This document shows, in pieces, positions 3,074 to 35,931 of a DNA stretch of 58,823 nucleotides. Source of the stretch: Patescibacteria group bacterium (GTDB taxonomy: Bacteria > Patescibacteriota > Minisyncoccia > Phycocordibacterales > Zambryskibacteraceae); assembly GCA_004322205.1 (NCBI GenBank), contig SCSN01000007.1, positions 1-58,823 on the forward strand, written 5' to 3'. Each line of letters starts with the position of its first letter. The stretch's first letter is position 1. The translations under genes were made by a program, and so were the position numbers. The notes under the pieces were generated by a model. The model ran no database searches and was not told where the DNA came from. It saw nothing but the letters and a program-made list of their open reading frames with translations.

Positions 3074-3080
3074 ATAAAAA

Positions 3081-9668: not shown

Positions 9669-9777
9669 CACCCAGCACCATTTTTAAATATGAAATTATG
9701 TTTCATAAAAAATAATACAGTGCTAAAACAAACTTCTGGTGACCACGTAGAGTTGTTATTAAAAATGGTGCTGGGTG
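9669..9777. repeat. Family-B intergenic hairpin element (copy B3) between rpmI and rplT
   Basis: 19-bp perfect terminal inverted repeat cacccagcaccatttttaa / ttaaaaatggtgctgggtg flanking 71 nt. The CCCAGCAC core is shared with the elements at 30124 and 35791. Confidence 0.75.
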
Positions 9778-9815
9778 AAGATTTTTATATTCATTTCATT
9801 CATTAAAAATCAATC

Positions 9816-10224: not shown

Positions 10225-13200
10225 CTACCAGCCCCAGCCGGGATCGATGTTCCAGGCTCGCAGACGGCCCCACCACACTGATTGGGGTATGATCGGCCCT
10301 TGATTCATGTTTCGCCCCAGCGCCATTCCATATATTGAACTCCTGTTAATTACCGTGTTCTTGATTGACATAAGTGGAACGCCGTCTATCCTGATTTCCA
10401 TAAGACCATCTGGAACATTCGTAGCAGACGATACTTTCATGTGTTCTCTGATATAATGCCACTGGCCGTTAGTAATTACGCTCCACTGAATACTTGCTGG
10501 ACCCCCCGACAGGAAGAATTGTTCATTGTCGGGCGGGCCTCCTGAATAATTTCTTCTCGGTGGATTGCCTAGCCCTTGGCTACCTACGACTAGACTGAAT
10601 CTTGATACGCTAGGATACACTCTTCCAAATAGGAATTTATAACCATTTGATGAGACTCCAGTACATTGTTGAACATAAGTTTCAAACCCGGGAGTGAATT
10701 TAAACCATCCTTCAAACCAAACTTCCTTTTCTTGTTTAGGGAATTGTATATTTCTTCCTATAGTATAATCGCGACAAAGATTTGGATCATTTGTTCGGTC
10801 TGGGAAATCGTATCGCATGCTCTTTCCTGTCATTCCTGGCGGAGTATCAGTATCAAGAGCAATCCTATTTACACCCTTATCCTCATTAGCACCACTCCAC
10901 ATTGGGTTCGGATAGGCGAGAAGATCTGCTGTTGTTGAATAATTACTAAAGTCTTCTTCTATCCAAGGTTGTACTCCTGCAGTTACCTTTATGAGAAAAT
11001 CTTCCACGCTCCAGCCGTCAGGAAGAGAGGCGTAATATATATTCCACCAATTATATCCACCTGCTGCTACTGGACCGCCTCTGACTGTGCCTTGAGCGCC
11101 CAAAGCTTGAGTCCCAAGCAGAGTGCCATTTGGCATAGCTCTGACGTTGAGGAGGTTGGCGGTGGTTTGGACAAAATCTCCAATTTGGAATTTGGTTGAA
11201 GACGGTTGTGTCACGGTTACGGTAGTGCTCTGGTTTGTGGTTCCCCCACTTCCGGTACATGCGAGAGTGTAGGTAGTTGTGACTGCGGGAGTAACTAATT
11301 GACTTCCTGATGCGCTAGTTAATGTCGTCCAAGGTGCGAAGCATGAAGTAGCATTTATTGAACTCCATGTGAGGGTTGAAGGGCCGGCTGTTATTGAGGA
11401 AGGAGAAGCAAAGAGAGTGACGATGGGAGCCGAGATACCACTATTCACCGCCGTTCGCCATCTTGCAATATAAACGTAAGCATCCTGTAAGATTGGACTT
11501 GGTGAACCGTTTGTTGGGTTCCAAGTTAATCCGCGGAAACCGGGATTGCCAGTAGGGGGAGTTATCATAATATTCTGAGCGTTTATTCTCCTAACTCCGT
11601 CAACCCACAACTCAAATGATCCATCACTTTGCCCAGGCGTTCCGGCTCGAATACGACGCTCCACCAAATACCATTTACCAAGTGGCAAAAGCGCAAACGA
11701 GGTCGAGTACTGCTGTCCCAAACCAGTGTACGCTCCACCAAATTGCGTTGCGAACCCAAATTTAAATGCGTTTGGACCGTAGAAGCCAATAAAGTGGTTC
11801 GTCAATCCATTGTTTGGATTCTGCAAATAAAATCCAAATTTCGCTCCATTATTCTGGGCTGGCTCAACATAAGCTGGGTCGTGCATTATATAGAAAGCAT
11901 CATAGACATCAGAAAACACTTGCGAATTAGCAAATTGCAAATCCACCCTGAATGGCGCCGCGCCAGCCGGAGTTCCAGCGCCATACTTTCCTTCCAAAAC
12001 TTTGGTTTGTCCCGTTGGAGACAACGGCAGACCTTTTGTCACCAAATCAGCAATCGTAAATCTTCCAGCTCCCGAAGTTATAGTCCATAGACCATTAGAG
12101 ATACTACCGGTTGGCGGGACAGTTGTATTAAATGTTTCGTCAGAAATTACCGTGTGCCCTGATGGTTGGTTCGGGAATTGTACTGGTGTCGGTGTTGGGG
12201 TTGGGGTTGGGGTTGGGGTTGGGGTAGAGCCAGACCAGCCGGGATCTTGATCCCAGGTGCGCACACGTCCCCACTGCACTCGCACAACACTGTTGGCGGT
12301 CTGCTGATTCATATTAGCTCCCAGCGACCAGCTCCAGATCTTGCCGCCCTGTGCTGAAACAATGCCAGAATCATACTGAAGCACTCCGTCAAGCCATACC
12401 TGTAAGATTCCGCTGGAACCGCGCTTGGCGTGAAATCGGAAAGTGTGCGGCTGATTATCGGCGTATTTAGCCCATGAAGGTTTATTTAAGGTGACCGGTG
12501 AAAAACCCGGAACCTCGTAGCTTGTTTGGTGCGTCTGGAAAATTCCGATCATGTTTCCGAACCGCTGTGCACCAGATGGAGGTTGGGGCGACGTGATACG
12601 CGCAAAGATATATTTGTATGCGCTGCTGCTCTTTCCTACGCACTCGGGTGCGTAGGTCTCAAAGTTCACGAGTCGCACTTCGAACTCCCCCCAGACTTCG
12701 TCCAAAGGACGGCCGGTTCCGCCCGCAACGCCCGTGCCAAAGTCCATGTTGGGACCAATTGAGTGATCTATACAATTAGCCGTAGCGCCACGTTGGAACT
12801 TGTATTCCATGTAAGCGCCGTTCGAACCGAAGCCGGGAATCCACTCTGAATCAAGACCCTTGGCAGGATCGTTGTCTATGTATTGGTAACGCAAGAAAAC
12901 ACTGTTCGGATCATCCGCAGGTTCGTTCGTCCAGACACCATTAGGATTGGAAGCGCTATAAATGTCCGAGAGCATAGCCGTCTTGGTATTCCAGCGGCTG
13001 AATTGAATATCTTGGAATGGCTGAACCGATGCAGAAGACACGCTAACCGTAGCAGATTGACTAGCACTTCCTCCCGCTCCTATACAAGTAAGAGTGTAAG
13101 TAGTGTTTACTGTCGGTGAAACTAATTGAGTTCCCGAGATTGCTTTTGTTCCTGACCATCCACTACTTGCCGTGCATGAAGTGGCATTGGTTGAGCTCCA

Positions 13201-14490
13201 AGTGAGAGTTGATGATTGGCCTGGTGTGATTGTGGTTGGTGGGGCGGTGAGGGTGACGGTAGGGGTAGGAGTCGGCGGAGAGCTGTAGACAGCACTGACT
13301 TTTGCTGCGTATGGGCAAAATCGCTTCCCCAACCATTGAGAAAGAGTGGACTCTACATAGGATGGTCTGGCATCACAAACTTCCATGAAGACCTGGCCTA
13401 GAACTATGGTGGAAGGATCAAGATGCCAGCTCCAAGGCGAATTAAATCCCCCGTTACTTGAATTAATAATACCACTGACAATCAAACTTCTTGACCCGTT
13501 AAGATCATTGAGCGCTTGTTGAACAGTGGCTGGATCAGTCATTTTAACAAGAAACGATTCATTCTGGTTGTCTATCATGACGTACTTGAAGTATTTTGCG
13601 GTAGTTTGAGTGGTGACTGTCACGGTTGCGCTCTGACTGGCTGATCCACCCGAGCCGGTGCAGGTCAGAGTGTAGGTGGTGGTAATTGTCGGAAAGAAAA
13701 TTTGGGAGCCGGAGATTGAGCGCGAGCCGCTCCAGCCATTACTTGCCGTACAACTTGTGGCATTGGTTGAGCTCCATGTGAGTGTTGATGATTGACCGGA
13801 AGTTATTGAGGAAGGAAAAGCGGAGAAGGTGAGAGTGGGTGAGGGGGTGGGAGTTGGTGAGGGAGATGGAATCTCTGAAGAAACAGTGACTGTCACGCCC
13901 CGGCTTGCAGTTCCCCCGCGGCCGGTGCAAGAGAGGGTATAGAGAGTGGTGGTGGTCGGGAAGAAAGATTGCTCGCCGGAGGTTGAACGTGACCCGTCCC
14001 ATCCGCCGGAAGCGCTACAAGAGGTGGAGTTGGTGGAGGACCAAGTCAGAGTGACAGCTTGACCTGAAGTAATAGCGGCCCGGCTAGCGCTCAAAACAAC
14101 GGACGGTTTTTCGGCTATCGGCTCTGTTCCCTTTTCAGAGGCGGTAGTGACGGTAACTGACTTTGAAACCGTACCGAAAGAAAGAGTGTAAGTGGTAGTT
14201 TGAAGAATGGGCTTGGTCACCTTGTCCCCTTTGTAATTAACAAAAAGGTTTGCAAACTGTCCGCCGTTCAATTTGCCGTCAGGACATGCGGAGCTTGCCT
14301 GCCAAGCGAGAACTACCTCCTGCCCCGCCGCGATTGAAGATGGGTTTGCAGTAAATGAGCTTATGGTGCAAAGCGATGAAGAAACTTCGGCGAGATTGCG
14401 CGAAGTGAGCGTGGAAATGAGAGTACTAATATTCTGAATAGCAAAAAGCAAAGCCGCCGCGATCGCCGCGGACAGGATTAAACGCTTCAT
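10225..14490 (-). CDS. Giant secreted multidomain surface protein
   Basis: 1421-aa ORF with a signal peptide. It has at least 6 copies of a ~90-aa Cys-pair Ig-like module (TLTWSSTNATSC..GW.GS....TTYTL.C.G.GG), an SH3b-like segment and PT linkers. Two paralogous ~260-aa jelly-roll-like modules end in WGR(V/L)R(T/A)W..DPGW, and a third related module ends YIARWRTAV. Confidence 0.85.
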   Translation of the reverse strand: MKRLILSAAIAAALLFAIQNISTLISTLTSRNLAEVSSSLCTISSFTANPSSIAAGQEVVLAWQASSACPDGKLNGGQFANLFVNYKGDKVTKPILQTTTYTLSFGTVSKSVTVTTASEKGTEPIAEKPSVVLSASRAAITSGQAVTLTWSSTNSTSCSASGGWDGSRSTSGEQSFFPTTTTLYTLSCTGRGGTASRGVTVTVSSEIPSPSPTPTPSPTLTFSAFPSSITSGQSSTLTWSSTNATSCTASNGWSGSRSISGSQIFFPTITTTYTLTCTGSGGSASQSATVTVTTQTTAKYFKYVMIDNQNESFLVKMTDPATVQQALNDLNGSRSLIVSGIINSSNGGFNSPWSWHLDPSTIVLGQVFMEVCDARPSYVESTLSQWLGKRFCPYAAKVSAVYSSPPTPTPTVTLTAPPTTITPGQSSTLTWSSTNATSCTASSGWSGTKAISGTQLVSPTVNTTYTLTCIGAGGSASQSATVSVSSASVQPFQDIQFSRWNTKTAMLSDIYSASNPNGVWTNEPADDPNSVFLRYQYIDNDPAKGLDSEWIPGFGSNGAYMEYKFQRGATANCIDHSIGPNMDFGTGVAGGTGRPLDEVWGEFEVRLVNFETYAPECVGKSSSAYKYIFARITSPQPPSGAQRFGNMIGIFQTHQTSYEVPGFSPVTLNKPSWAKYADNQPHTFRFHAKRGSSGILQVWLDGVLQYDSGIVSAQGGKIWSWSLGANMNQQTANSVVRVQWGRVRTWDQDPGWSGSTPTPTPTPTPTPTPVQFPNQPSGHTVISDETFNTTVPPTGSISNGLWTITSGAGRFTIADLVTKGLPLSPTGQTKVLEGKYGAGTPAGAAPFRVDLQFANSQVFSDVYDAFYIMHDPAYVEPAQNNGAKFGFYLQNPNNGLTNHFIGFYGPNAFKFGFATQFGGAYTGLGQQYSTSFALLPLGKWYLVERRIRAGTPGQSDGSFELWVDGVRRINAQNIMITPPTGNPGFRGLTWNPTNGSPSPILQDAYVYIARWRTAVNSGISAPIVTLFASPSSITAGPSTLTWSSINATSCFAPWTTLTSASGSQLVTPAVTTTYTLACTGSGGTTNQSTTVTVTQPSSTKFQIGDFVQTTANLLNVRAMPNGTLLGTQALGAQGTVRGGPVAAGGYNWWNIYYASLPDGWSVEDFLIKVTAGVQPWIEEDFSNYSTTADLLAYPNPMWSGANEDKGVNRIALDTDTPPGMTGKSMRYDFPDRTNDPNLCRDYTIGRNIQFPKQEKEVWFEGWFKFTPGFETYVQQCTGVSSNGYKFLFGRVYPSVSRFSLVVGSQGLGNPPRRNYSGGPPDNEQFFLSGGPASIQWSVITNGQWHYIREHMKVSSATNVPDGLMEIRIDGVPLMSIKNTVINRSSIYGMALGRNMNQGPIIPQSVWWGRLRAWNIDPGWGW
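12185..12226. repeat. Hexanucleotide microsatellite (GGKGTY)7 encoding a (PT)7 linker
   Basis: ggtgtc ggtgtt then ggggtt x4 and ggggta, in frame inside the giant ORF. Confidence 0.9.
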
Positions 14491-20947: not shown

Positions 20948-21476
20948 CTGCTTTCTTGCCCTGCTTGAGTTTGATAACTTCGCCTTGGTAGCGAATGCCC
21001 TTGCCTTTATAGGGCTCCGGTTTTTTGAGAGAGCGCAGGCGTGCCGCGAATTCGGTAACGAGCTCCTTGCCGACGCCGGAGACAGTCAGAACATTTTTCT
21101 CCACCGTGATGGAGAGTCCGGCGGGAATAGGCACTTCAACCGGATGAGAGAAACCCAGGGCAAATTGAAGTTTGTCGCCCTTGAGCTCAACTCGGTACCC
21201 AATGCCTTCCACCACAAGTTTTTTGCTAAATCCTTCCGTGACACCCCTCACCATATTTGTGACGTGCGAAGCATAGGTGCCGCGCAGTATCCCCACTCCT
21301 GGGCTCTCTCCCCTCGGCTCCACCCGGAGTTGCGAGTCAGAAGCAACCACATTGAGAGACGGCGGCAGAGTACGAGAAGTTTCCCCCAGTGGCCCCTTGA
21401 CGACAACGGTATTGCCGCTCACGCTAACCGTTACTTTCTCCGGGATGACAATTATTTTTTTTCCGATTCGACTCAT
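20940..21476 (-). CDS. rplF: 50S ribosomal protein L6
   Basis: MSRIGKKIIVIPEKV.. The ATG at 21476 lies inside the longer track ORF (to 21527). TATAAT at 21483-21488 is 6 nt upstream. Confidence 0.93.
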   Translation of the reverse strand: MSRIGKKIIVIPEKVTVSVSGNTVVVKGPLGETSRTLPPSLNVVASDSQLRVEPRGESPGVGILRGTYASHVTNMVRGVTEGFSKKLVVEGIGYRVELKGDKLQFALGFSHPVEVPIPAGLSITVEKNVLTVSGVGKELVTEFAARLRSLKKPEPYKGKGIRYQGEVIKLKQGKKAVA

Positions 21477-21526
21477 GCCAATATTATACGAACGATACGA
21501 GCGAAGTGAGCAAATAAAATTGAGCA

Positions 21527-21654
21527 CCCCCCACTAACTTTTCCACTCACCAGCCTCGATTTCTCGTCCCATGGACGAAAAATCATTTTTAATACCAGCA
21601 TGATATATAAATTATTCTTCATATAAATCATTGTTCTGAAAAGTTAGTGGGGGG
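21527..21654. repeat. Family-A intergenic hairpin element (copy A1) between rpsH and rplF
   Basis: 17-bp perfect terminal inverted repeat ccccccactaacttttc / gaaaagttagtgggggg. Internal hairpin tcgtcc-cat-ggacga. Conserved aaatcattgttctgaaaagt end. Confidence 0.8.
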
Positions 21655-21705
21655 TAGAGTTTCGCAATCTCTGTTTGCTTCAGCAAGCAAACAGAGGGCG
21701 AATTC

Positions 21706-22092
21706 TCACCATATCTCAAACAACGCCTCACCGCCGACCCGAGCGGCTCGCGCCTCCTTGTCTGAAAGAATACCCTTGGGAGTGGAGAGCACAAGCATGC
21801 CGTAGCCGCGCTTCACCGCTACAATCTCCCGCACTGATTTGTAGACTCGGCGAGAGGGTCTGGAAAGACGTCTCACTCCCTGGACCCTTGGATGATTATC
21901 AACGTAGCGAAGTCCTATTTCTATCATCTTCGTCTTTTTGCCGCGCCGCGCGACTGCGCCGACAAACCCCTCTTTCTCAAGAAGTAAACAGATTTCCATC
22001 TTCACCCGGGAATACGGCAAAGTAACCGACTCTTTTCGAGCTCCGCCCCCATTCTTGATTCGAATGATGAGATCGGCAATTGGATCAGTCAT
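21706..22092 (-). CDS. rpsH: 30S ribosomal protein S8
   Basis: 128 aa, MTDPIADLIIRIKNG. Confidence 0.95.
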   Translation of the reverse strand: MTDPIADLIIRIKNGGGARKESVTLPYSRVKMEICLLLEKEGFVGAVARRGKKTKMIEIGLRYVDNHPRVQGVRRLSRPSRRVYKSVREIVAVKRGYGMLVLSTPKGILSDKEARAARVGGEALFEIW

Positions 22093-22093
22093 A

Positions 22094-22279
22094 TTACCAA
22101 GACGATTTCTTTACCCCGGGAATCTTGCCTTCGTTGGCAAGCTCACGGAAGCAGATTCGACACAAATCAAAATCTCTCATATAGCCGCGCTTCCGCCCGC
22201 AACGAAAACAGCGCCGAACCACTCTAGTTGAGAACTTCGGCTTCTTGAGCGACCTGGCAATGACTGACTTTTTTGCCAC
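22094..22279 (-). CDS. rpsZ: 30S ribosomal protein S14 type Z (zinc-binding)
   Basis: GTG at 22279 gives a 61-aa protein (V)AKKSVIARS.. with CxxC..CxxC. Confidence 0.9.
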
Positions 22280-22304
22280 AAATAAAAACCCCAAACGGGT
22301 CTTG

Positions 22305-22334
22305 ATACTAGCAAGACAAAGTAGTTAGTGTCAA
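22305..22334 (-). promoter_or_regulatory. Internal sigma70-like promoter upstream of rpsZ
   Basis: On the minus strand: TTGACA, 18 nt, TAGTAT. Same ttgcTAGTATc context as the rpsS promoter. Confidence 0.45.
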
Positions 22335-22429
22335 ACAAAAAGCTTTTCTAAATTTGGAGGTATCGCCGTGTTTTAAGAGGCCAACGTAAGAATTTAATGT
22401 TTGAGCTTCCAAGTGTATAAAACCCATCC

Positions 22430-22966
22430 TTACTCTTTCCTAAAAGGAAACTCTAAAAATTCAAAAAACGCTTTGGTCTCTTCTTTATTTTTTGCATTTG
22501 TCACAATCGTCACCGCCAACCCAAAGACATCCTTGAGTTCTTCGTCGGACGTCTCGGGGAAAATTGTGTGCTCGCGAACGCCAATGGTCAGATTCCCCAT
22601 TTCGTCAATGGCGCTCGCAGGAATGCCGCGGAAATCCTTGGTGCGCGGCAGAGCAACGTGAAGCAGTTTGTCGAGAAAATCATACATTCTTTTGCCGCGA
22701 AGGGTCACCTGCAACCCCACTGGGTCGCCCTGACGGATTTTAAACGATGCAACCGACTGCTTGGCTCCGCGGACCGACGGTTTCTGCCCCGTAATTTTTG
22801 CCAGGCGATCAAGAGCGAGGTCTCTTTTCTTAGGGTCTTTAAACGAGCCGGTGCCGGCTGAAACCACTACCTTAAGAATCCGCGGCACTTGCATGGGGTT
22901 ACTGTAGCCTAATTTGGACTTGGGCGCCGCAAAAGCCTTTCTTATTTTTTTCTGGATTGGCTCCAT
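22430..22966 (-). CDS. rplE: 50S ribosomal protein L5
   Basis: 178-aa ORF, typical L5 sequence. Confidence 0.95.
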   Translation of the reverse strand: MEPIQKKIRKAFAAPKSKLGYSNPMQVPRILKVVVSAGTGSFKDPKKRDLALDRLAKITGQKPSVRGAKQSVASFKIRQGDPVGLQVTLRGKRMYDFLDKLLHVALPRTKDFRGIPASAIDEMGNLTIGVREHTIFPETSDEELKDVFGLAVTIVTNAKNKEETKAFFEFLEFPFRKE

Positions 22967-23075
22967 GTTAGTTTATAAGTTCCGTTTCGCTCATAAGTTT
23001 AATAAGTTATTGGGGCTGCAGTTTGTATTTGAGTCTTTAACTTATAAAACTTTTGAACTTATTCAACTTCTCAAC

Positions 23076-23384
23076 CTATCCGATAACATTTCCGCTCTTC
23101 TTCGCCACCCGCACTTTCTTGCCTCCTACCTCTCGATAGCCAATACGTGTGGGTTTGCCTGTCTTGGGGTCAAGAATCATTACCGCGGCAGCCGCAATCG
23201 GTGCGGTTTTGTCAATCACTTGCCCCTTCTGACCAGCGCGCGTCGGACGGCGGTGAACTTTTTTGACATTGACGCCCTCGACAATCACTTTCAGGGTACG
23301 CGGAAGAGCCTTGAGAACTTTTCCTTTTTTCCCCTTGTCTTTGCCGGAATGTATATAGACCGTGTCTCCTTTCTTGATCTTCAT
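23076..23384 (-). CDS. rplX: 50S ribosomal protein L24
   Basis: 102 aa, MKIKKGDTVYIHSGKDKGK KOW motif. Confidence 0.95.
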   Translation of the reverse strand: MKIKKGDTVYIHSGKDKGKKGKVLKALPRTLKVIVEGVNVKKVHRRPTRAGQKGQVIDKTAPIAAAAVMILDPKTGKPTRIGYREVGGKKVRVAKKSGNVIG

Positions 23385-23450
23385 AATTTTGTTATGAGCG
23401 AAGCAAATTGGAAAATGTGCTTAAAAACATAGTCACTTCATTCCTTGTTT

Positions 23451-23822
23451 TTATACCACCTCTGGCGCCAGCGAAATAATTTGCTGAAAGCCCCGCTCCC
23501 CTAGCTCTCGCGGGACGGGACCGAAAATGCGCCCCGCCACCGGCTCACGCTTTACCTTATCAATGACTATAACAGCGTTCTCATCAAAGCGAATATAGGA
23601 GCCGTCGCTTCGGCGGAAGGGGTATTTCTGGCGCGCCACTACAGCGTACAAAATATCTTTCTTCTTGACGGGTTTGCGCGGCTGGGCTACTTGAACAGAA
23701 AGCACAACCACGTCACCGATCCGGGCGTAGCGCTTGCGCGATCCTCCGAGCACTTTGAAAACTCTCCCGATTTTTGCGCCGGAGTTATCTGCAATTTTGA
23801 CAATAGAGCGTGGTTGGATCAT
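23451..23822 (-). CDS. rplN: 50S ribosomal protein L14
   Basis: MIQPRSIVKIADNSGAK.. The ATG at 23822 lies inside the longer track ORF. TATAAT at 23829-23834 is 6 nt upstream. Confidence 0.95.
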   Translation of the reverse strand: MIQPRSIVKIADNSGAKIGRVFKVLGGSRKRYARIGDVVVLSVQVAQPRKPVKKKDILYAVVARQKYPFRRSDGSYIRFDENAVIVIDKVKREPVAGRIFGPVPRELGERGFQQIISLAPEVV

Positions 23823-23863
23823 GCCAATATTATATGAGCGAAGCGAATAATAATATTGAGCAT

Positions 23864-23990
23864 CCCCCACTTACTTTTCCCCTCAAAACAAGCGATTTTT
23901 TGTCTTGCAGACAAAAAATCATTTTCAATTCTTGCACGTAATCTAAATTAACGTTTTTGTAAATCATTGTTCTGAAAAGTAAGTGGGGGG
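23864..23990. repeat. Family-A intergenic hairpin element (copy A2) between rpsQ and rplN
   Basis: Terminal inverted repeat cccccacttacttttc / gaaaagtaagtggggg. Internal 12-bp perfect hairpin gattttttgtct-tgc-agacaaaaaatc. About 85% identical to copy A3 by eye. Confidence 0.85.
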
Positions 23991-24005
23991 TTGTGTAATT
24001 CATGG

Positions 24006-24257
24006 TCACTGCGTTTCTTGAATTACAACAAAGTGTTTGTGCTTCGAAATCGGTTTTGTCTCTTGAATCACCACCTTCTCGCCAACCTTCCGAACGTTTC
24101 CCGGATCATGCGCCTTGTATTTTTTCCGATATTCGATGTATTTGCCGTAGCGCGGATGCCTGACGTAGCGGCGCACAAGAACAACCACCGTGTCTTTCAT
24201 CTTGTCCGAGATTACCACTCCAGAAAACTTTTTCCCTTTTGTTTTTGTTTCCGCCAT
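24006..24257 (-). CDS. rpsQ: 30S ribosomal protein S17
   Basis: 83-aa ORF, typical S17. Confidence 0.95.
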   Translation of the reverse strand: MAETKTKGKKFSGVVISDKMKDTVVVLVRRYVRHPRYGKYIEYRKKYKAHDPGNVRKVGEKVVIQETKPISKHKHFVVIQETQ

Positions 24258-24262
24258 GGCGC

Positions 24263-24454
24263 TTATTTGACCTTCGTTTTTCGGCCGGAGAGCTCGGTTA
24301 GAAGCCGGGCAATATCCTTGCGCAGGGCGCGTCCTTCTTTGACATTTCTCACCTTGCTGCCAGCAACACCAAACCGAAAAGCCCGCAAGGCTTCGCGTTT
24401 CTCACGCAACATTTTCTCCAAATCCTTCTCCGTTTTGTCTTTCAAATCTTTCAC
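24263..24454 (-). CDS. rpmC: 50S ribosomal protein L29
   Basis: 63-aa ORF, GTG start. Confidence 0.9.
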   Translation of the reverse strand: MKDLKDKTEKDLEKMLREKREALRAFRFGVAGSKVRNVKEGRALRKDIARLLTELSGRKTKVK

Positions 24455-24467
24455 CTTAATGATTCGG

Positions 24468-24887
24468 TTACTGCCGAGCGATCACCCTTGTCTTAACGGG
24501 AAGTTTACTTCCAGCTTTGCGCAATGCCTCGCGAGCTCCTGACTCCGGTATCCCATCGACCTCAAACAATATCCGACCTAGTTTCACCGGTGCGCAGTAG
24601 CCGGCAATATCCCCCTTGCCTTTCCCCATCGGCACTTCGGCAGGCTTAGCGGTATATGGCATGTCGGGGAAGATTCGAATCCAAGCTTTTCCCGTTTTAC
24701 CAAGCGAGCGCGCAAGAACCTTTCGCGCCGCTTCAATCTGGTTTGAGCGAATGCGCCCGGCTTGCATCGCCTTGAGCCCAAACGAGCCGAAGTCCACGCT
24801 CGCCCCGCGCGTGGCCACACCCACGCGCTCGGGGTGTTTGCGCATGGTGTGCCACTTTCGATATTTTACTTTTTTGGGGAAAAGCAT
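24468..24887 (-). CDS. rplP: 50S ribosomal protein L16
   Basis: 139 aa, MLFPKKVKYRKWH. Confidence 0.95.
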   Translation of the reverse strand: MLFPKKVKYRKWHTMRKHPERVGVATRGASVDFGSFGLKAMQAGRIRSNQIEAARKVLARSLGKTGKAWIRIFPDMPYTAKPAEVPMGKGKGDIAGYCAPVKLGRILFEVDGIPESGAREALRKAGSKLPVKTRVIARQ

Positions 24888-24896
24888 GGTTGATTT

Positions 24897-25568
24897 TTAC
24901 AGACCTTGTTTTTTGGAAAACACTTCGCCTTTATAAACCCAGACCTTGATGCCGAGATCGCCGTACGGCAGTTTCGCTCGCTCGCGGGCAAAGTCGACAT
25001 TGGCGCGAAAAGTCTGAAGCGGAATGCGCCCAAGCTTGCGCGTCTCACTACGAGCAATAGAGGCGCCGCCGAGGCGCCCGGCAATAGTAATTTTTACTCC
25101 TCCAACGTCGCGGTTTGCCATCACTTTCTCAACCATTTGCTTGAGAACTCGGCGGTAAGGCAGCCGCTTCTCGAGACCCTCGGCAATCATCGCCGCCACA
25201 ATAGCGGCGTTGGACTCCGGCGACTTGACCTCCCTAATATCGAGCTTGACTTCGGTCTTGAGATTCCAGATGCCGCGCTTGCGCATCATAGACAAAAGGT
25301 CCTCTCGCAACTTGACCGCCCCGTCGCCGGCTCTGCCGATAATCATGCCCGGACGCGACGTCTCAATAATGACGCGCAGGGTTTTCTCGCCCCGTTCAAT
25401 GTCAATGGAGCTGACAAAAAAACCGCGCAGTTTGCGTTCAAGAAACGAGCGGATGAGAATATCGCCGCGCAGAAATTCGGTGTACTTTTTCTTCAAGCCA
25501 AACCAGCGAGATTTCCAATCTCTAATGATGCCGAGGCGGTGTGAATATGGATGGACAGTGTGGCTCAT
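24897..25568 (-). CDS. rpsC: 30S ribosomal protein S3
   Basis: 223-aa ORF with KH and S3-C regions. Confidence 0.95.
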   Translation of the reverse strand: MSHTVHPYSHRLGIIRDWKSRWFGLKKKYTEFLRGDILIRSFLERKLRGFFVSSIDIERGEKTLRVIIETSRPGMIIGRAGDGAVKLREDLLSMMRKRGIWNLKTEVKLDIREVKSPESNAAIVAAMIAEGLEKRLPYRRVLKQMVEKVMANRDVGGVKITIAGRLGGASIARSETRKLGRIPLQTFRANVDFARERAKLPYGDLGIKVWVYKGEVFSKKQGL

Positions 25569-25975
25569 AGAGCGGCTTTCAGCTTCTTAGCCTTAGATAC
25601 TTTGTCTCCTTCGGTTTTCGGATTTCGTGCTTCCGATTCAGGTAGCTTTGTTTCTAAAACCAATTTGACGTGACTTGTTCTTTTGCGCACAGGAAGGGCT
25701 CGACCGCGCGAGGCAGGGCGATTTCGGTAGAGAATATCACCGCCGTCCACTCGAATCTCTTTGATTAAAAGTTCCTTGCTGTCGAGGTTCTGTGTTTTGG
25801 CATTCGCCACCGCCGATTTAATGAGCTTGGCAATCGGAGCGCCGGCGCGCTTGGGGATAAATAAGAGGGAGGTCAGAGCTTCCTCAACTCTCTTGCCGCG
25901 CACTACATCTGCCACCAGCCTTACCTTGCGGGGAGATTGTCTGAAGTTGCGAAGCTGGGCTGTAACAGTAGCCAT
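25565..25975 (-). CDS. rplV: 50S ribosomal protein L22
   Basis: 136-aa ORF with a C-terminal basic extension. Confidence 0.93.
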   Translation of the reverse strand: MATVTAQLRNFRQSPRKVRLVADVVRGKRVEEALTSLLFIPKRAGAPIAKLIKSAVANAKTQNLDSKELLIKEIRVDGGDILYRNRPASRGRALPVRKRTSHVKLVLETKLPESEARNPKTEGDKVSKAKKLKAAL

Positions 25976-25978
25976 ATT

Positions 25979-26332
25979 TTATTTCGATTCTTGGGAACTT
26001 TGAGTGGGGGCGGCCTTGGCAGCTTGGGCGGCGGCGATCTCCGCCTCACGCTTTTGCTGCTCAAGCTCTTTCTGGATTTTCCCTCCGTGCCGAACAAACT
26101 TGCGAGTCAGAGCAAATTCTCCCAGCCGGTGCCCCACCATATCTTCCGTCACAGAGACTTCAATATGCTCCTTGCCGTTGTGCACGCCAAAAGTAAAACC
26201 GACCATCTCGGGAGCAATCTGGCTATCTCTCGCCCAAGTGCGAATCACTCCGACCTTGTCAGGCTTTTTACCCTCAATTTTTTTGAGGAGTTTTTCGTAG
26301 ACGTACGGACCTTTCTTTGACGAGCGAGTCAT
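25979..26332 (-). CDS. rpsS: 30S ribosomal protein S19 with ~25-aa C-terminal extension
   Basis: [11 protein letters not shown].. from the ATG at 26332 inside track ORF 25979..26353. Confidence 0.93.
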
Positions 26333-26393
26333 ATTGAAAAAAGAAGCTCGCAAGAGCTTCGCAAGATACTAGCAAATGAGCCCTTCTTGTCAA
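26333..26393 (-). promoter_or_regulatory. Re-initiation promoter plus 5' hairpin-U6 immediately upstream of rpsS
   Basis: Minus strand: TTGACA (26388-26393), 16 nt, TAGTAT (26366-26371). Then GAAGCTC-ttgc-GAGCTTC (26343-26360), TTTTTT, caat, ATG. Confidence 0.5.
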
Positions 26394-26400
26394 ATTCTCC

Positions 26401-26440
26401 ATGAAAATACCCCAGCGTCCGCTTATGCGGCGCGCTGGGG
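26401..26440 (-). terminator. Hairpin terminator at the 3' end of the inserted gene
   Basis: CCCCAGCG..CCGC-ataa-GCGG..CGCTGGGG followed by tattttc. It overlaps the stop codon at 26423. Confidence 0.65.
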
Positions 26441-27070
26441 TATGCGCGGGAGGAACGGCCAGACGAGCCGAACCATTCCACCCCGCACTCGGAGAGCCCA
26501 ATCTGCTTTGAGCGGAACTGGGTTGTCTCCAATCCTCCGTCCCTTCCCATCCTTGCGCCATTGAAGTATGGACCCACCTAGAGAGTCGATGACCGGGATC
26601 CGATGTTCGAAGTTCATCGAAATCCAAGTCTGCTCCATGGTGTTCCGATACGCCCTCACTCGCCAAAAAGCATCGGCGAGCAGGCGCACCAGTTCCACCC
26701 GGGCGTCGCGCAAGCGCTTCACCTTTTGTTGATCGAGCTTTCGACCAAACCACGGTGGAAAGAAGACAAAGCGCAACATGTTGTAGCGCCGCCTGTCCTT
26801 ATCCAACCTTCGCTGGAACTGTACATCGGCAAGCCACCACCCTTCTAGCTCAAGATCAGCGAGAAGTTGGCGACCGGTGACCGGTTCTGTCTCGCGAATA
26901 AACTTAACACTCTTCCATTCGCGAGATTTGCGGGTTTCTACCTCCTTCTTTGATTCGTCGGAGAGTCGCCGAATCCAACATCGCGGAACCGCCTGGTCGT
27001 TAGAGAAGCTGAACTGCAGACGAAGCTCGTCCAGCTCCTGATCGAGCATTCCGGGAAACTCCAGAGACAT
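26423..27070 (-). CDS. Hypothetical 215-aa protein inserted between rplB and rpsS
   Basis: ATG at 27070 with GGAGGAG 6 nt upstream. Arg/Trp-rich, no motif recognised. Visibly GC-richer than the flanking r-protein genes. Confidence 0.7.
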   Translation of the reverse strand: MSLEFPGMLDQELDELRLQFSFSNDQAVPRCWIRRLSDESKKEVETRKSREWKSVKFIRETEPVTGRQLLADLELEGWWLADVQFQRRLDKDRRRYNMLRFVFFPPWFGRKLDQQKVKRLRDARVELVRLLADAFWRVRAYRNTMEQTWISMNFEHRIPVIDSLGGSILQWRKDGKGRRIGDNPVPLKADWALRVRGGMVRLVWPFLPRIPQRAA

Positions 27071-27130
27071 GGTTGTCTCCTCCAAAGTTGGTGGACAATA
27101 ATGGGATTAATTTCTAGGAACTCTTCTCTA

Positions 27131-27160
27131 ATTATATCATAACATATAATAATTTGTCAA
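27131..27160 (-). promoter_or_regulatory. Near-consensus sigma70 promoter of the inserted gene
   Basis: Minus strand: TTGACA (27155-27160), 18 nt, TATAAT (27131-27136). Confidence 0.6.
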
Positions 27161-27189
27161 TACCAAAACCAGCCCCTTGTTTAGGGCTG
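27161..27189 (-). terminator. Hairpin plus U-rich tract after rplB
   Basis: CAGCCC-taaacaag-GGGCTG followed by gttttggtatt on the minus strand. Confidence 0.55.
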
Positions 27190-27235
27190 ATTGATGTTTG
27201 CAAAACCCAAAGCCAAAGACACGAAGCTTAAAGTC

Positions 27236-28075
27236 CTAGCGTTTTCTTACCGCGCGGCGTTTGATTATGAACTTGTTGGAGTATTTTTTCGCTCGGCGAG
27301 ACTTTTGCCCTTTGCCGGTGGGTTTGCCGAAGACGCTAATCGCCCGGCGGCGCCCTCGCCCAGCTCTGCCTTCTCCTCCTCCATGAGGATGATCCACCGG
27401 ATTCATGGCCGTCCCGCGCACCGTCGGGCGAATGCCGAGCCAGCGGCTGCGCCCCGCTTTGCCGAGGCGCATCAGGCGATTTTCTTCATTGGAAACTTCT
27501 CCCACCGTCGCCCAGCAATTTTCAGAAACCATCCTCACTTCAGTTGAAGGCATTTTGAGATGAGCATAGCCTCCGTCTTTGGCAACAACTTCGATATAAT
27601 TGCCGCCGGAGCGCCCGAGTCTGGCACCCCCGCCCGGTTTCAGTTCAGTGTTATAAACAAACGTCCCGACGGGAATATTTTTAAGCGGCAGACGATTGCC
27701 AGAAGCAAGCGGGGCAGTTTCTGAAACAAGATAGGTGTCGCCAACCTTTGCGCTCTTGGGAAGCAATACGTAACGCCGCGACCCGTCTTTATAAACGGCA
27801 AGACCGACAAAGCCGCTGCGATTTGGATCATATTCAATTGTCCGCACAGTAAACGGAATGTCGCGTTTATCGTATACAAAATCAACAAGTCGGTAGAGAC
27901 GCTTGTGTCCGCCCCCTTTGTGGCGCACGGTAATTCTTCCTAAGCGGTTGCGGCCAACGGCGCGCTTTCTGCCGAAAGTTAGATGCTTCACCGGCTCGCC
28001 TGCCGTCACAGCGGCGCCGTAGGAGAGGGAAGTCATCTGGCGTCGTGATGGAGTTGTTGGTTTATACTGTTTCAT
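27236..28075 (-). CDS. rplB: 50S ribosomal protein L2
   Basis: 279-aa ORF, typical L2 (..MNPVDHPHGGGEGR..). Confidence 0.96.
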   Translation of the reverse strand: MKQYKPTTPSRRQMTSLSYGAAVTAGEPVKHLTFGRKRAVGRNRLGRITVRHKGGGHKRLYRLVDFVYDKRDIPFTVRTIEYDPNRSGFVGLAVYKDGSRRYVLLPKSAKVGDTYLVSETAPLASGNRLPLKNIPVGTFVYNTELKPGGGARLGRSGGNYIEVVAKDGGYAHLKMPSTEVRMVSENCWATVGEVSNEENRLMRLGKAGRSRWLGIRPTVRGTAMNPVDHPHGGGEGRAGRGRRRAISVFGKPTGKGQKSRRAKKYSNKFIIKRRAVRKR

Positions 28076-28121
28076 GTTAGAGATTGTTAGTGAGCGAACG
28101 CGAGCTTACAAGACTCTTACA

Positions 28122-28249
28122 CCCCTCACTTACTTTTCCTCTTAAAATAAGCGATTTTTTGTCTGCAAGACAAAAAATCATTTTCAACTCTTGCGTATAA
28201 CCCAAACTAACATTTTTGTAAATCATTGTTCTGAAAAGTAAGTGGGGGG
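28122..28249. repeat. Family-A intergenic hairpin element (copy A3) between rplW and rplB
   Basis: Terminal inverted repeat cccctcacttacttttc / gaaaagtaagtgggggg (one G:T). Internal hairpin gattttttgtct-gca-agacaaaaaatc. Confidence 0.85.
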
Positions 28250-28277
28250 TTGAGTAATTTATATTCACTTCGCTACG

Positions 28278-28640
28278 TTAAATTACTTCAATCTTCTCTC
28301 CCGCTTTCAAATAGACATACGCCTTCTTGCCGCCGGCCTTCATGCCGCGTCTGCGCCTGCTAAAAATTTTCTTGCGGGGAACATAAGTTACGGCGACTTT
28401 GCGCGGCTTGACCTTGTAGACAAACTCAACCGCTTGGCAGATATCGCGCTTCGTTGCTTCGGGAGAAACTTCAAAAACATAGACATTATCGGCCGTTTTG
28501 TCGGTCGCCTTCTCCGTCACTCGCGGGCGAATGAGAATGTGATCGAGAGCGCGAGAGGGAGTAACGCTTGATTCAGCGCGCTCCGGCGCTTTCTCCTCTT
28601 TCTTCTTTTCTTCCCTCTTCTTTTTACCAAAAAGAGCCAT
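28278..28640 (-). CDS. rplW: 50S ribosomal protein L23 with N-terminal Lys/Glu-rich extension
   Basis: 120-aa ORF, L23 core ILIRPRVTEKA.. Confidence 0.93.
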   Translation of the reverse strand: MALFGKKKREEKKKEEKAPERAESSVTPSRALDHILIRPRVTEKATDKTADNVYVFEVSPEATKRDICQAVEFVYKVKPRKVAVTYVPRKKIFSRRRRGMKAGGKKAYVYLKAGEKIEVI

Positions 28641-30092: not shown

Positions 30093-30123
30093 AGATTTTC
30101 TTGAGCGGAGCGATTAGAAAATC

Positions 30124-30228
30124 GTGACCCAGCACTTACTCTTCCGAGGCGCACACTACTATATCTTTATGTTCATTCCAATCTCTGTAGTCCTGTGCGA
30201 GTGAAAATCTTCGTAAGCGCTGGGTGAC
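30124..30228. repeat. Family-B intergenic hairpin element (copy B1) between rpsJ and rplC
   Basis: Terminal inverted repeat gtgacccagcacttac / gtaagcgctgggtgac (14/16). Flanks tagaaaatcg and a(t/c)atagtctcc..ggatcctt are shared with copy B2. Confidence 0.75.
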
Positions 30229-30270
30229 TTAAAACATAGTCTCCGCCAGCTGGCGGATCCTTGTTTTAAT

Positions 30271-31933: not shown

Positions 31934-32301
31934 GGTTAGTGGATCTTACTTTCGAAAATTCATCGCACGAGAGAGTGGTGAATTTCCAAAACTAAGTAAA
32001 TGAACTATTGATAATGTTGTTTACTATTAACAAACAAGCCACCCCATCATGCAAAGGGATGGACGCGAAAAATGCGTGGGGAATATCATAGCAAAGCAAA
32101 AAGAATAGTCAAATCGGTATTAGTCACGCCACGGCGGGGTTGTCACCGCGTCAAACTCTCCAGTTTCTATAAAAACGAAAACCCCAACGAAACATTCGCA
32201 TGAATACCCCTTGCTTGTAAACTGTCACAACTAACTCATTTAATATGTAATATCCGATCATAGCACTTCTCAAATTCATTGCGACCGCGTATAATTTGTG
32301 T

Positions 32302-32862
32302 ATGGGTGAGATTGAGAGAAAATCAGCGAGAAAACTAAAATACAAAAACATTCAGAATGCCGTTTTGGCAGTCGTAGCGACAGGTGTGTTTCTAAGTGCC
32401 GCCATTTTGGCTCCAAATGCTTTGCAAGTTTTTTCAAAACTCGGAATTACCGGAAAAAGAAAACGGGAAGGTGTAAGCCGAGCTCGCGACAGACTACTTG
32501 AAAAAGGAATGTTGAAGAAAGATGAAAAAGGATATTTGCAAATAACAAACAAAGGGCGCATCAAGCTTGGAATGAGACACGAGCTAGTGAGAAAGCCAAT
32601 GCGCTGGGACAAAAGGTGGAGAGTTCTTATATTTGATATCCCAGAAAAAAGAAAGGAGGTTAGGAATAAAATACGACAGATGTTAATTTCGGCTGGATTT
32701 CTTAGATTACAGGATAGCGTGTGGGTTTACCCGCATAATTGTGAAGACTTTGTGGCTCTTCTAAAAGCAGATCTGCACATTGGCAAAGATCTGTTGTATC
32801 TGCTTGTTGACTCAATAGAAAACGATAAGTATTTAAAAGAAGAGTTTGATTTGAAAAAATAG
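32302..32862 (+). CDS. PaaX-like / Cas2-fold (ferredoxin-like) putative regulator
   Basis: 186-aa protein. The C-terminal WDKRWRVLIFDIPEKRKEVRNKIRQMLISAGFLRLQDSVWVYP matches the PaaX C-domain/Cas2-like pattern. TATAAT (32290-32295) is 6 nt before the ATG. Confidence 0.65.
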   Translation: MGEIERKSARKLKYKNIQNAVLAVVATGVFLSAAILAPNALQVFSKLGITGKRKREGVSRARDRLLEKGMLKKDEKGYLQITNKGRIKLGMRHELVRKPMRWDKRWRVLIFDIPEKRKEVRNKIRQMLISAGFLRLQDSVWVYPHNCEDFVALLKADLHIGKDLLYLLVDSIENDKYLKEEFDLKK

Positions 32863-32903
32863 CTATCTGAATATTAACGTTTTAATAATCAATCAACTAT
32901 CTA

Positions 32904-32937
32904 CCACAATAATTGCGCCATGGCGCAATTATTGTGG
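32904..32937. terminator. 34-bp perfect palindrome, bidirectional terminator between convergent genes
   Basis: ccacaataattgcgcc-at-ggcgcaattattgtgg. Confidence 0.75.
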
Positions 32938-32959
32938 TAAAGTTTTCCCAACTTACCAA

Positions 32960-35747: not shown

Positions 35748-35790
35748 GGCTGATTTTCTTAACGAGCTTGGCGAGTTTTAGAAAATCGCC

Positions 35791-35888
35791 ACCCAGCACT
35801 TACAAAAAGTGAACTAATTAAAGAGGTCCTTATAGATTTTCCAAAATGGTCTGATTGCATAATGTATATATTGATGTAAGTGCTGGGT
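35791..35888. repeat. Family-B intergenic hairpin element (copy B2) between rpsL and rpsG
   Basis: 14-bp perfect terminal inverted repeat acccagcacttaca / tgtaagtgctgggt. Confidence 0.75.
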
Positions 35889-35931
35889 TGTGAAAAATAT
35901 AGTCTCCTGTAGCCGCGGGATCCTTATTTTT

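Follow-up and report, generated by a model that had tools for sequence, protein, structure and literature searches.

Probable MITE-like inserts with sense open reading frames in the translation-operon junctions of a Paceibacteria genome

Introduction

Precedents exist for MITEs at the 3' ends of genes and for RNase III cleavage of Correia stems at their terminal inverted repeats (TIRs) (PMC10969869, PMC5896051). The effect of an ERIC element on the flanking mRNA depends on its orientation (PMC10969869). QMITE2 of Coxiella burnetii, 150-190 bp long with TIRs, is found chiefly at ORF 3' ends, reaches 1-10 bp into the final codons and can lengthen the C-terminus of the host protein (PMC5896051). 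Translational coupling weakens as the distance from stop to start grows, and RNA that is not translated provokes Rho polarity (PMC12548453).

Here we examine inserts in a 58.8-kb stretch of Patescibacteria DNA, called the window throughout. A first-pass annotation had reported three copies of an element, Family A, in its ribosomal-protein operon spacers and had offered three candidate roles: MITE-like mobile DNA, RNase III or stability hairpins, or a terminator joined to a promoter. Mobile DNA is the best supported of these, and the terminator-plus-promoter role is not supported. We conclude that the three copies, A1-A3, are probably the cores of non-autonomous, palindromic MITE-like elements that sit in translation-operon junctions of a Paceibacteria (CPR) genome, would be co-transcribed with the operons and would be tolerated in a form that keeps a relay ORF. 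On our best reading the family is new.

Results

Three cores in ribosomal-protein junctions

All three copies are present where they had been reported, with a slight adjustment of A2:

21527-21654, minus strand: A1 core, 128 nt, rpsH-rplF spacer; TIR arms 21526-21543 and 21638-21655; inner hairpin 21558-21584; covariance model score 148 bits
23863-23990, minus strand: A2 core, rpsQ-rplN spacer; TIR arms 23864-23879 and 23974-23989; inner hairpin 23894-23920; covariance model score 154 bits
28122-28249, minus strand: A3 core, rplW-rplB spacer; TIR arms 28121-28138 and 28233-28250; inner hairpin 28153-28179; covariance model score 151 bits

The flanking genes (S8 and L6, S17 and L14, L23 and L2) are all on the minus strand, and the copies share one orientation, sense to the operon, as the annotation had it. 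Their repeats of 16-18 bp are 94-100% complementary (18/18, 16/16 and 17/18 bp in A1, A2 and A3), with 94 nt between the arms in each. The 21-mer TAAATCATTGTTCTGAAAAGT occurs three times against 0.00 expected. Ungapped over 128 nt, A2 and A3 are 87.5% identical, close to the 85% judged by eye, while A1 matches A2 at 75% and A3 at 70%. The perfect inner hairpin followed by AAAATCATTTT is also there, with a stem of 12 bp, and the block said to be shared downstream of two copies is an identical 15-mer, TATAATATTGGCATG, after A1 and A2; in both, TATAAT stands 6 nt before the ATG.

Homology among the three reaches past the TIRs into a 162-nt repeat family with flanking hairpins. A1-A3 are the best-conserved cores (128 nt) of larger palindromic insertions that occupy entire junctions (183-229 nt) and contain only short ORFs, to which no family matches; in size (MITEs span about 50-500 bp) and in having no transposase gene they are MITE-like. 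The flanking hairpins are as follows:

23995-24026, minus strand: A2 upstream hairpin H1, GTAATTCA / TGAATTAC; its loop motif ACGCAGTGA provides the rpsQ stop codon
28254-28286, minus strand: A3 upstream hairpin H1, GTAATTTA / TAAATTAC; homologous to A2 H1 and overlapping the rplW stop codon
21669-21696, minus strand: A1 upstream hairpin, a perfect 12-bp stem unlike H1 of A2 and A3 in sequence, directly after the rpsH stop
23825-23858, minus strand: A2 downstream hairpin H3, CAATATTAT / ATAATATTG, loop TATTCGCTTCGCTCAT; its end is separated from the rplN ATG by 2 nt
21479-21523, minus strand: A1 downstream hairpin H3, CAATTTTAT / ATAATATTG, 8/9 pairs, loop carrying CTCACTTCGCTCG; read from the sequence

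At A2 the C-terminus of S17 is lengthened to ..VVIQETQ, and the 'TATAAT' of A2 is the 3' arm of H3, a 9-bp hairpin. The H3 stem of A1 is not drawn in the minimum-free-energy fold.

Fold z-scores of the Family A elements run from -4.9 to -8.6, with perfect 17-bp stems predicted. Three pairs are compensatory among A1-A3, and 97.7% of cells are paired compared with 50-64% when the partners are slid. Judged from these models, an RNase III or stability role for the stems is plausible. Pairing over the start regions is no stronger than in control genes (0.52 versus 0.47, p 0.12).

Sense reading frames through the spacers

Contrary to the claim that the elements carry no ORF, A1, A2 and A3 have sense ORFs of 52, 57 and 49-63 codons:

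21473-21631, minus strand: A1 sense ORF, 52 codons; ATG 6 nt inside the left TIR, TGA stop overlapping the rplF ATG (ATGA); shuffle P 0.018
23830-24003, minus strand: A2 sense ORF, 57 codons; ATG 2 nt after the rpsQ stop, or overlapping GTG at 24009; TAA 7 nt before the rplN ATG; P 0.005
28077-28268, minus strand: A3 sense ORF, 63 codons from GTG or 49 from the ATG at 28226; TAA 1 nt before the rplB ATG; P 0.003-0.008

Their stop-to-start gaps (-4, 7 and 1 nt) lie within the roughly 20 nt taken to define coupled ORFs. Fifteen composites were examined at about 10 distinct types of junction, and all 15 are sense to the operon. An ATG-initiated ORF of at least 30 codons is found on the sense strand of 12 of the 15 and on the antisense strand of one; ORFs of at least 30 codons ending no more than 26 nt from the next start number 11/15 and 0/15 (Wilcoxon p about 0.0004-0.0009), figures to be read with thresholds that were set after the first cases had been seen and composites that are partly non-independent. 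Shuffling element by element gives P of 0.005-0.05 for the sense ORFs; the longest open frame taken alone is not significant. The relay ORF is weak or missing in four composites: rpsJ-rplC of the window, L14-L24 and rpsQ-rplN of locus L011 (the latter with two split ORFs) and S10-L3 of locus L013.

Related elements in the window

The family proves wider than three copies. At least three similarly built elements lie elsewhere in the window, with kin of the cores at 9668-9778, 35786-35893 and 30124-30228, and one further spacer holds an outer module:

9644-9815, plus strand: rpmI-rplT composite, the entire spacer palindromic; TIR CACCCAGCACCATTTTTAA at 9668-9687 and 9759-9778; covariance model 28.7 bits, E 0.0013
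35748-35931, minus strand: rpsL-rpsG composite; TIR at 35786-35804 and 35875-35893
30093-30270, minus strand: rpsJ-rplC composite, more decayed; TIR GTGACCCAGCACTTAC at 30124-30139 and 30213-30228
23385-23450, minus strand: rplN-rplX spacer, the outer module alone (H1-like hairpin and TTCGCTCA leader) without the TIR core

The palindrome arms at rpmI-rplT are 52 nt long and 75% complementary, and a 38-codon sense ORF runs through the composite at 9690-9806. At rpsL-rpsG a 33-codon sense ORF (35759-35860; shuffle P 0.024) stops 11 nt before the rpsG ATG; the rpsJ-rplC frame is limited to 21 codons from a GTG; and the 12-codon ORF of the rplN-rplX spacer stops 7 nt before the rplX ATG. The window holds three Family A copies within 7 kb, its three related elements lie as far as 26 kb from them, and all six composites are in translation operons, with none elsewhere in the 58.8 kb.

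The same junctions in relatives

The statement that these spacers are normally a few nucleotides long holds, since orthologous junctions in relatives measure 1-8 nt. The rpsQ-rplN spacer is 1-4 nt in L009, L027, L029 and L030 and 183 nt in the window; rplW-rplB is 2 nt in L013 and L029 and 202 nt in the window; rpsH-rplF is 8 nt in L027 and 229 nt in the window. Between L009 and L011, the orthologous rpsH-rplF spacers differ by one TIR element. Presence/absence polymorphism thus occurs at orthologous sites, where the junctions of relatives are empty, and related Paceibacteria have similar elements at other junctions (for example L14-L24, L22-S3 and S3-L16). At rpsQ-rplN the window and L013 have their flanks in common, including an S17 extension ..VVIQET ending in Q or K; the cores differ and the arms are still complementary. 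Because occupancy varies freely among close relatives, many of which have no element, the junction modules are dispensable.

Termini shared beyond Family A

Elsewhere in Patescibacteria the termini CCCSCACTWACTTTTC enclose unrelated interiors, some with 6-bp target duplications. A search for both termini with a gap between them (gap patterns up to 600 nt) gave eight genome loci and 12 metagenome loci, where by our own estimate chance would give fewer than one. At these loci, most of them in Patescibacteria, the repeats run past the search pattern (CCCGCACTAACTTTTCA). Perfect 6-bp direct repeats flank L004 (ATCCAT) and L005 (GTCAAC), and five of six positions match at L003, L008 and L024. The same termini recur, with target duplications, in promoters and downstream of genes as unrelated as mutM and dnaG. 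A single element, present as L023 and L026, follows two different genes, the dnaG stop codon of L026 lies inside the TIR, and at L001 the element is placed exactly between the Shine-Dalgarno sequence and the ATG. Bin-329 has two elements on separate contigs. Scored with a covariance model of A1-A3, L006 reaches 47 bits and L005 46 bits, and the model also recovers 9668-9778 of the window. Orientation relative to neighbouring genes is mixed in this wider CCCGCACTAACTTTTC family.

An E-value search of the elements against Rfam, ribosomal-protein leaders included, returned chance-level hits only (sxy, at 26 bits where the gathering score is 70), and over the whole window nothing but tmRNA and two tRNAs passed the gathering threshold. 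The Family A interior was absent from any second genome, with zero matches in a 24-mer metagenome scan; blastn against 5,426 E. coli genomes and searches of plasmids and phages gave no match, and viral contigs scanned for the termini gave none either. No target-site duplication was found in the flanks of A1-A3, nor, with gap patterns of up to 600 nt, an autonomous element or transposase partner with Family A termini.

Discussion

Empty orthologous junctions, the same termini on unrelated interiors and the 6-bp duplications of relatives argue for MITE-like elements; against them stand the lack of duplications at A1-A3 and of a transposase partner. Could the inserts instead be RNA modules selected by the host and not mobile at present? 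Their hairpins would then segment the long ribosomal-protein transcript through RNase III or stability and so control neighbouring-gene stoichiometry, and the palindrome in the DNA would be no more than a template. Very stable stems with compensatory changes fit such modules, as do the sense orientation without exception at all junctions, the confinement of the six window composites to translation operons, the rpsQ-rplN arms of the window and L013 that remain complementary around different cores, and the missing target duplications. We nevertheless consider them unlikely, given junctions whose occupancy varies freely between close relatives, termini that recur behind mutM and dnaG, in promoters and with target duplications, an unconserved interior and no match in Rfam.

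A cassette in which the inner hairpin terminates transcription and TATAAT-N6-ATG starts a leaderless mRNA, uncoupling the downstream gene, is very unlikely. Such a cassette would show a G+C-rich stem with a sense U-tract, then -35 and -10 hexamers spaced 16-18 nt. In A2 and A3 the inner hairpin does run into CUUGUUUUGA or CUUAUUUUAA, listed as terminator-like, and TATAAT 6 nt from the ATG in A1 and A2 has the geometry of a leaderless start. But A1, read in sense, lacks a U-tail, G-C pairs make up only 3 of 13 in the AU-rich hairpin, and TATAAT, itself the 3' arm of the 9-bp hairpin, is absent from A3 and the other composites. Nor did the consensus scan call a -35/-10 pair there, whereas it called canonical promoters at other places in the operon, 27160-27131, 26393-26366 and 22334-22305; the real promoters of this genome read TTGACA-N16-18-TGnTAGTAT.

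That the spacers encode real small proteins of 38-57 aa, cargo of tiny transposon-like units, is very unlikely: although the ORFs are specific to the sense strand, four divergent ones are each exactly 38 codons long and a gene caller picked up two in L013, the peptides are unconserved (pN about equal to pS, differences without third-position bias), largely encoded by the inverted repeats themselves, unmatched in Pfam and without a homologue among 5.8 billion proteins, and a search of 1.84 billion representatives matched only long repetitive proteins.

Since the spacer peptides show no selection, a relay ORF that preserves translational coupling is suggested, and it is in this form that MITE-like elements would be tolerated. 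Read in the sense direction, each insert begins with a hairpin that overlaps or follows the upstream stop codon. Next comes a long stem, which the 17-bp terminal repeats close and whose AT-rich interior contains the 12-bp inner hairpin, and last a second hairpin ending at the downstream start codon. The elements would be co-transcribed with the ribosomal-protein operon and tolerated only in an orientation and form that keeps a translatable sense ORF, open from the inside edge of the element until 0-13 nt short of the next start. The message would thereby keep its ribosomes and escape polarity, and the ribosomes would melt the stems and begin anew at the gene downstream; when untranslated, the 17-bp stem would be a likely RNase III substrate.

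It is possible, and we propose it tentatively, that the junction elements are 'translation-transparent' mobile DNA, whose own relay ORF restores coupling and guards against polarity over some 200 nt of highly structured RNA. This ORF would begin directly after the upstream stop or just inside the left repeat. A relay frame ending at the next gene's start may explain how insertions in essential operons are tolerated; if so, translation transparency would let a streamlined CPR genome tolerate many one-orientation insertions in its most essential operons. In the wider family, as at L001, the terminal stem, by closing fully, could extrude the insert from the RNA and so rejoin host signals. Because the flanks of A1-A3 are homologous and mosaic, spread within the operon may have gone by recombination or gene conversion, not transposition.

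How do these elements compare with known systems? The Correia elements of Neisseria (CREE/NEMIS) are similarly non-coding units of 100-150 bp with long TIRs, often within operons and co-transcribed. Unlike Family A, they duplicate a TA target, have TIRs of 26 bp and carry both an IHF site and promoters that point outward; the two share no sequence similarity, and no sense ORF spanning a junction has been described for Correia. ERIC (enterobacterial repetitive intergenic consensus), likewise an imperfect palindrome, measures about 127 bp and occupies intergenic regions that are transcribed as part of operons; it belongs to a different phylum and occurs in both orientations, whereas the window copies are sense only. 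REP/BIME of enterobacteria are also built as mosaics, with short palindromic modules placed in the spacers of operons, and in both cases hairpins after stop codons could protect the upstream mRNA; REP units, however, are about 35 bp and mobilised by RAYT transposases, while the cores described here are 100-130 nt with true terminal repeats and show neither a REP motif nor a RAYT gene. The RPE of Rickettsia is likewise palindromic, about 100-150 bp long, open in one frame and tolerated in or next to essential genes, but it lies in frame inside a host ORF and becomes part of the host protein, whereas a Family A ORF is separate, has its own ATG and stops just before the next gene. QMITE2, compared here by description only, differs in its direct repeats of 7-11 nt, and a Paracoxiella locus (L002) fits the terminal pattern with different, longer repeats. 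The habit of QMITE2 of settling on gene ends is nevertheless echoed here, in the QETQ gained by S17 and in the dnaG stop codon within the TIR of L026.

Results

Three copies of one element between ribosomal-protein genes

Sequence reading of three spacers, with the flanking genes identified by Pfam, confirms a 128-nt core bounded by terminal inverted repeats (TIRs).

A1, 21527-21654, between minus-strand genes for S8 and L6 (rpsH/rplF)
A2, 23863-23990, between minus-strand genes for S17 and L14 (rpsQ/rplN)
A3, 28122-28249, between minus-strand genes for L23 and L2 (rplW/rplB)

The copies are real and lie where the first-pass annotation had put them, except that A2 starts at 23863 rather than 23864. 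Because the flanking genes are all on the minus strand, the copies are all oriented the same way with respect to transcription, as had been claimed. The TIRs, described as 16-17 bp, measure 16-18 bp (18/18, 16/16 and 17/18 in A1, A2 and A3), with arms exactly 94 nt apart. Gapless alignment gives 87.5% identity for A2-A3, judged by eye at about 85%, 75% for A1-A2 and 70% for A1-A3. A 21-mer adjoining the right end is found three times (0.00 expected). The termini are written CCCCCCACTWACTTTTC, and the terminal sequences also as CCCSCACTWACTTTTC; they share ACTTACT with the inverted repeat of IS1, presumably by coincidence.

Both strands fold into structures far more stable than those of shuffled sequences (z -4.9 to -8.6). 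Pairing was scored on a named structure, the 17-bp terminal stem plus a 12-bp inner hairpin, the internal hairpin noted earlier. On it 97.7% of cells are paired; sliding the partners lowers this to 50-64%. Both partners differ between copies in three pairs: the terminal stem has one such change, U-A to A-U, and the inner hairpin has two, both U-A to C-G. Drawn from three sequences, these compensatory changes are suggestive only. G-U versus C-A mismatches were uninformative as a strand indicator, with one case each way.

The family is not limited to three copies. A covariance model built from A1-A3, together with an inverted-repeat scan, located further elements, all between translation genes.

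9644-9815, plus strand, rpmI/rplT element in sense orientation
30093-30270, rpsJ/rplC element of the same build
35748-35931, rpsL/rpsG element of the same build
23385-23450, rplN/rplX spacer, outer hairpin-plus-leader module without the core

The first three have related termini (CACCCAGCAC...), and the entire rpmI/rplT spacer is palindromic with arms of 52 nt. By the same two methods the rest of the 58.8-kb window holds no such element. At least six palindromic insertions lie in the S10-spc, str and infC-rpmI-rplT operons, at positions that vary among close relatives.

Other repeats in the window were recorded separately. The 1026-nt fusA/tuf spacer (31934-32959) has an opposite-strand 188-aa ORF (32296-32862) and a 38-nt perfect palindrome (32902-32939). 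A perfect palindrome of 36-40 nt, ACTTCCTTAGTGTATCATATATGATACACTAAGGAA, occurs at 42897-42936, 45135-45170 and 45680-45715 and could be an operator or terminator. Two intergenic regions share TATTCGCAGACATTCGTATCATTCGCACTATTCGTATATTC, a direct repeat of 41 nt at 93% identity (52482-52522 and 58643-58683). On the plus strand, Rfam finds a tmRNA gene at 2673-3074 (101 bits) that ARAGORN does not report; the 3' arm of a near-perfect 24-nt hairpin (2630-2681) overlaps its first bases. Two very large secreted-type proteins, of 1421 aa with a BP74_N domain (10225-14490) and 1135 aa with fn3 domains (54600-58007), have internally repeated segments in common (direct-repeat families D2-D5).

Insertion of a larger unit

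Homologues of L14, the best of them 85-89% identical, assign the organism to the Paceibacteria/Parcubacteria, near Zambryskibacteria. We compared the operon from seven relatives, labelled here by locus (L-numbers).

Spacer lengths (nt) in the window and in relatives
rpsQ/rplN: window 183; short in L009 (1), L027 (1), L029 (4) and L030 (1); long in L011 (176) and L013 (162)
rplW/rplB: window 202; short in L013 (2) and L029 (2); long in L011 (214 by the called rplB start, 175 to a corrected start at 1668)
rpsH/rplF: window 229; short in L027 (8)

The relatives' 1-8 nt bear out the remark that these spacers are normally a few nucleotides long. Occupied junctions in L011, L013 and L009 have the same build with other termini, for example CCCCCCATCATTTTTAA and CCCGCTCTATTTTTAA, and these loci also carry elements at junctions that are tight in the window (L14/L24, L22/S3 and S3/L16). 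The orthologous rpsH/rplF spacers of L009 and L011 differ by one TIR element and a 16-nt tail. At the level of sequence, these comparisons show a history of insertion. Insertion also alters the predicted host proteins. S17 ends in ..FVIVK* at an empty junction, in ..FVVIQETQ* in the window and in ..FVVIQETK* in L013; at the occupied junction its stop codon lies inside a hairpin loop motif. A gene of the 23S_rRNA_IVP family sits inside the ribosomal-protein cluster of L011, between rpsC and rplP (8399-8767).

A direct-repeat search returned a 162-nt family in which the aligned flanks are homologous outside the TIRs; judged by this homology, the insertion unit is larger than the 128-bp element first described. 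In the sense direction, the first part is a hairpin that lies at the upstream stop or overlaps it. The core comes next, then a second hairpin, whose 3' arm finishes 2 nt 5' of the start codon. The upstream hairpin lies at 23995-24026 in A2, at 28254-28286 in A3 and, with a different sequence, at 21669-21696 in A1. Flanking sequence is mosaic, with the upstream hairpin common to A2 and A3 and the downstream one to A1 and A2.

The second hairpin of A2 (arms CAATATTAT and ATAATATTG, loop TATTCGCTTCGCTCAT) identifies the block noted earlier as TCGCTTCGCTC..TATAAT-N6-ATG as loop plus 3' arm. The block is present; as a promoter it fails, having no -35 box and its TATAAT within a hairpin arm, and a consensus promoter scan called none at the site. 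The proposal of terminator-plus-promoter modules is not supported. Nor does the downstream hairpin appear to sequester the start codon, as pairing in the start region is no stronger than in control genes. The same scan called TTGACA-N16-18-TGnTAGTAT before rpsS and before rpsN, and a canonical TTGACA-18-TATAAT elsewhere in the cluster (27160-27131). The latter, a perfect match, lies with a terminator-like hairpin (27192-27167) 5' of a 220-aa ORF between rplB and rpsS (26423-27192) that has no Pfam match. At this junction L009, L013, L029 and L030 have different unannotated genes (73-180 aa), and L011 has four genes, including a MYG1 exonuclease.

Sense ORFs across the inserted spacers

The copies had been said to carry no ORF. 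Sense ORFs of 52, 57 and 49-63 codons in fact cross A1, A2 and A3. The distance from stop to downstream ATG is -4 nt in A1 (an ATGA overlap), 7 nt in A2 and 1 nt in A3. The A2 ORF begins 2 nt past the rpsQ stop, and the invariant 21-mer includes an ATG common to all three. Shuffled sequences gave an ATG ORF this long with its stop within 20 nt of the start codon at P = 0.018 (A1), 0.005 (A2) and 0.008 (A3). In four other composites (whole junction insertions, hairpins included) P was 0.02-0.05, and in composites examined after the idea had formed, 0.024-0.044. The longest open frame alone was not significant against shuffles.

The sense strand has an ORF of 30 codons or more in 12 of 15 composites, the antisense strand in one; requiring the stop to fall no more than 26 nt from the next start leaves 11 and none. 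The contrast is significant (Wilcoxon p about 0.0004-0.0009), at thresholds picked post hoc and with homologous copies bringing the effective n nearer 10 than 15. Four composites have no good ORF. An 88-nt outer-only spacer of L011 is a single 30-codon ORF running from TAATG to ATGA.

We reject a functional peptide, since the ORF products show no selection. In A1-A3 pN/pS is 0.25-0.49, with no difference between the ORF frame and its mirrored antisense frame, and the excess of third-position differences falls short of significance (p 0.13-0.24). Four ORFs with DNA identity of only 43-61% are all exactly 38 codons long, and in this group pN about equals pS. Protein searches with the ORF products returned nothing or repetitive proteins only, and Pfam gave no match. 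What is kept is openness and position, not sequence.

A wider terminal-repeat family

A scan of species-representative genomes and metagenomes for two termini separated by 79-109 nt found 8 genome and 12 metagenome loci (less than one expected by chance, by our own estimate). Most are from Patescibacteria (Paceibacterota, Moraniibacteriota), with one from Bdellovibrionales and one from Paracoxiella. The repeats reach past the search pattern to a common CCCGCACTAACTTTTCA, and the interiors are unrelated. L006 and L005 score 46-47 bits with the A1-A3 model, about 12 bits above the other strand, which indicates some interior similarity. No consistent orientation rule was found in this wider CCCGCACTAACTTTTC family.

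Direct repeats of 6 bp surround L004 (ATCCAT) and L005 (GTCAAC), with a 5/6 match at L003, L008 and L024. A single element recurs at L023 and L026, behind mutM in the former and dnaG in the latter, and in L026 the repeat provides the last codons and stop of dnaG. The elements of L005 (1677-1805) and L024 (3931-4048) are unrelated apart from their termini; each sits in the -35 box of a promoter, flanked by GTCAAC (GTTGAC gene-wise), which at L005 is the -35 box of TTGACA-17-TAATAT. The family may prefer GTCAAC as a target. In L001 the element (830-946) lies exactly between a Shine-Dalgarno sequence (AAGGA plus 5 nt) and the next ATG; closure of the terminal stem would return the SD and AUG to their original spacing in the RNA. 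In L016 (12491-13460; the DNA of L007, L021 and L022, Moraniibacteriota), two TIR elements, each about 125 nt and arranged head to tail, adjoin a 67-nt tandem array of 4.7 copies, each unit starting with the terminal motif CCCCGCACTAACTTTTC.

Empty junctions in relatives and shared termini elsewhere favor the suggestion of MITE-like mobile DNA; against it count the lack of target duplications at A1-A3 and the failure to find an autonomous partner. The terminal-repeat patterns had 0 matches in viral contigs, the A2 composite had no blastn match among plasmids, phages and E. coli genomes, and an exact Family A 24-mer had 0 matches in JGI metagenomes. Rfam, searched by E-value and gathering threshold, returned no relevant known family. 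In a full-text search for MITEs in Patescibacteria/CPR, the phrase 'miniature inverted-repeat' was absent from the Patescibacteria papers listed.

Discussion

How might a palindromic element persist in such operons? Coupling efficiency drops fast as the stop-start distance grows, and stretches of operon RNA that are not translated are prone to Rho-dependent polarity (PMC12548453). We propose that a mobile element inserts into a 1-8-nt junction and that the only survivors would be insertions whose sense strand is translatable across nearly the whole interval between the upstream stop and the downstream start. Such survival would account for the ORFs and for the single orientation. While the message is untranslated the stems would form, and would then be likely nuclease targets; we infer co-transcription, ORF translation and stem cleavage. 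Spread by recombination is allowed by the homologous mosaic flanks and the lack of duplications in the window.

A host-selected processing module is a live rival. In its favor, the rpsQ/rplN junctions of the window and L013 have common flanks around cores that differ yet are still complementary.

CPR/Patescibacteria genomes are regarded as extremely streamlined. If the sense ORFs relay ribosomes, they would show how selfish DNA can survive in tightly coupled essential operons and leave them working, and these junctions would be a natural test bed for models of polarity and of translational coupling (termination-reinitiation versus RNA unfolding). The elements also change gene calls, through spurious small genes and altered C-termini in S17 and other proteins, and provide variable markers with which to type strains of uncultured Paceibacteria.

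Among known systems, the stems of Correia elements are cut by RNase III, and MITEs often lie on the 3' ends of genes (PMC10969869, PMC5896051). The most suitable classification for the element described here is a new MITE-like family in Patescibacteria. Its unusual feature is a putative junction-spanning relay ORF, a sense ORF that crosses the inserted spacer and ends near the next start codon. To our knowledge, no such ORF has been described for the known families.
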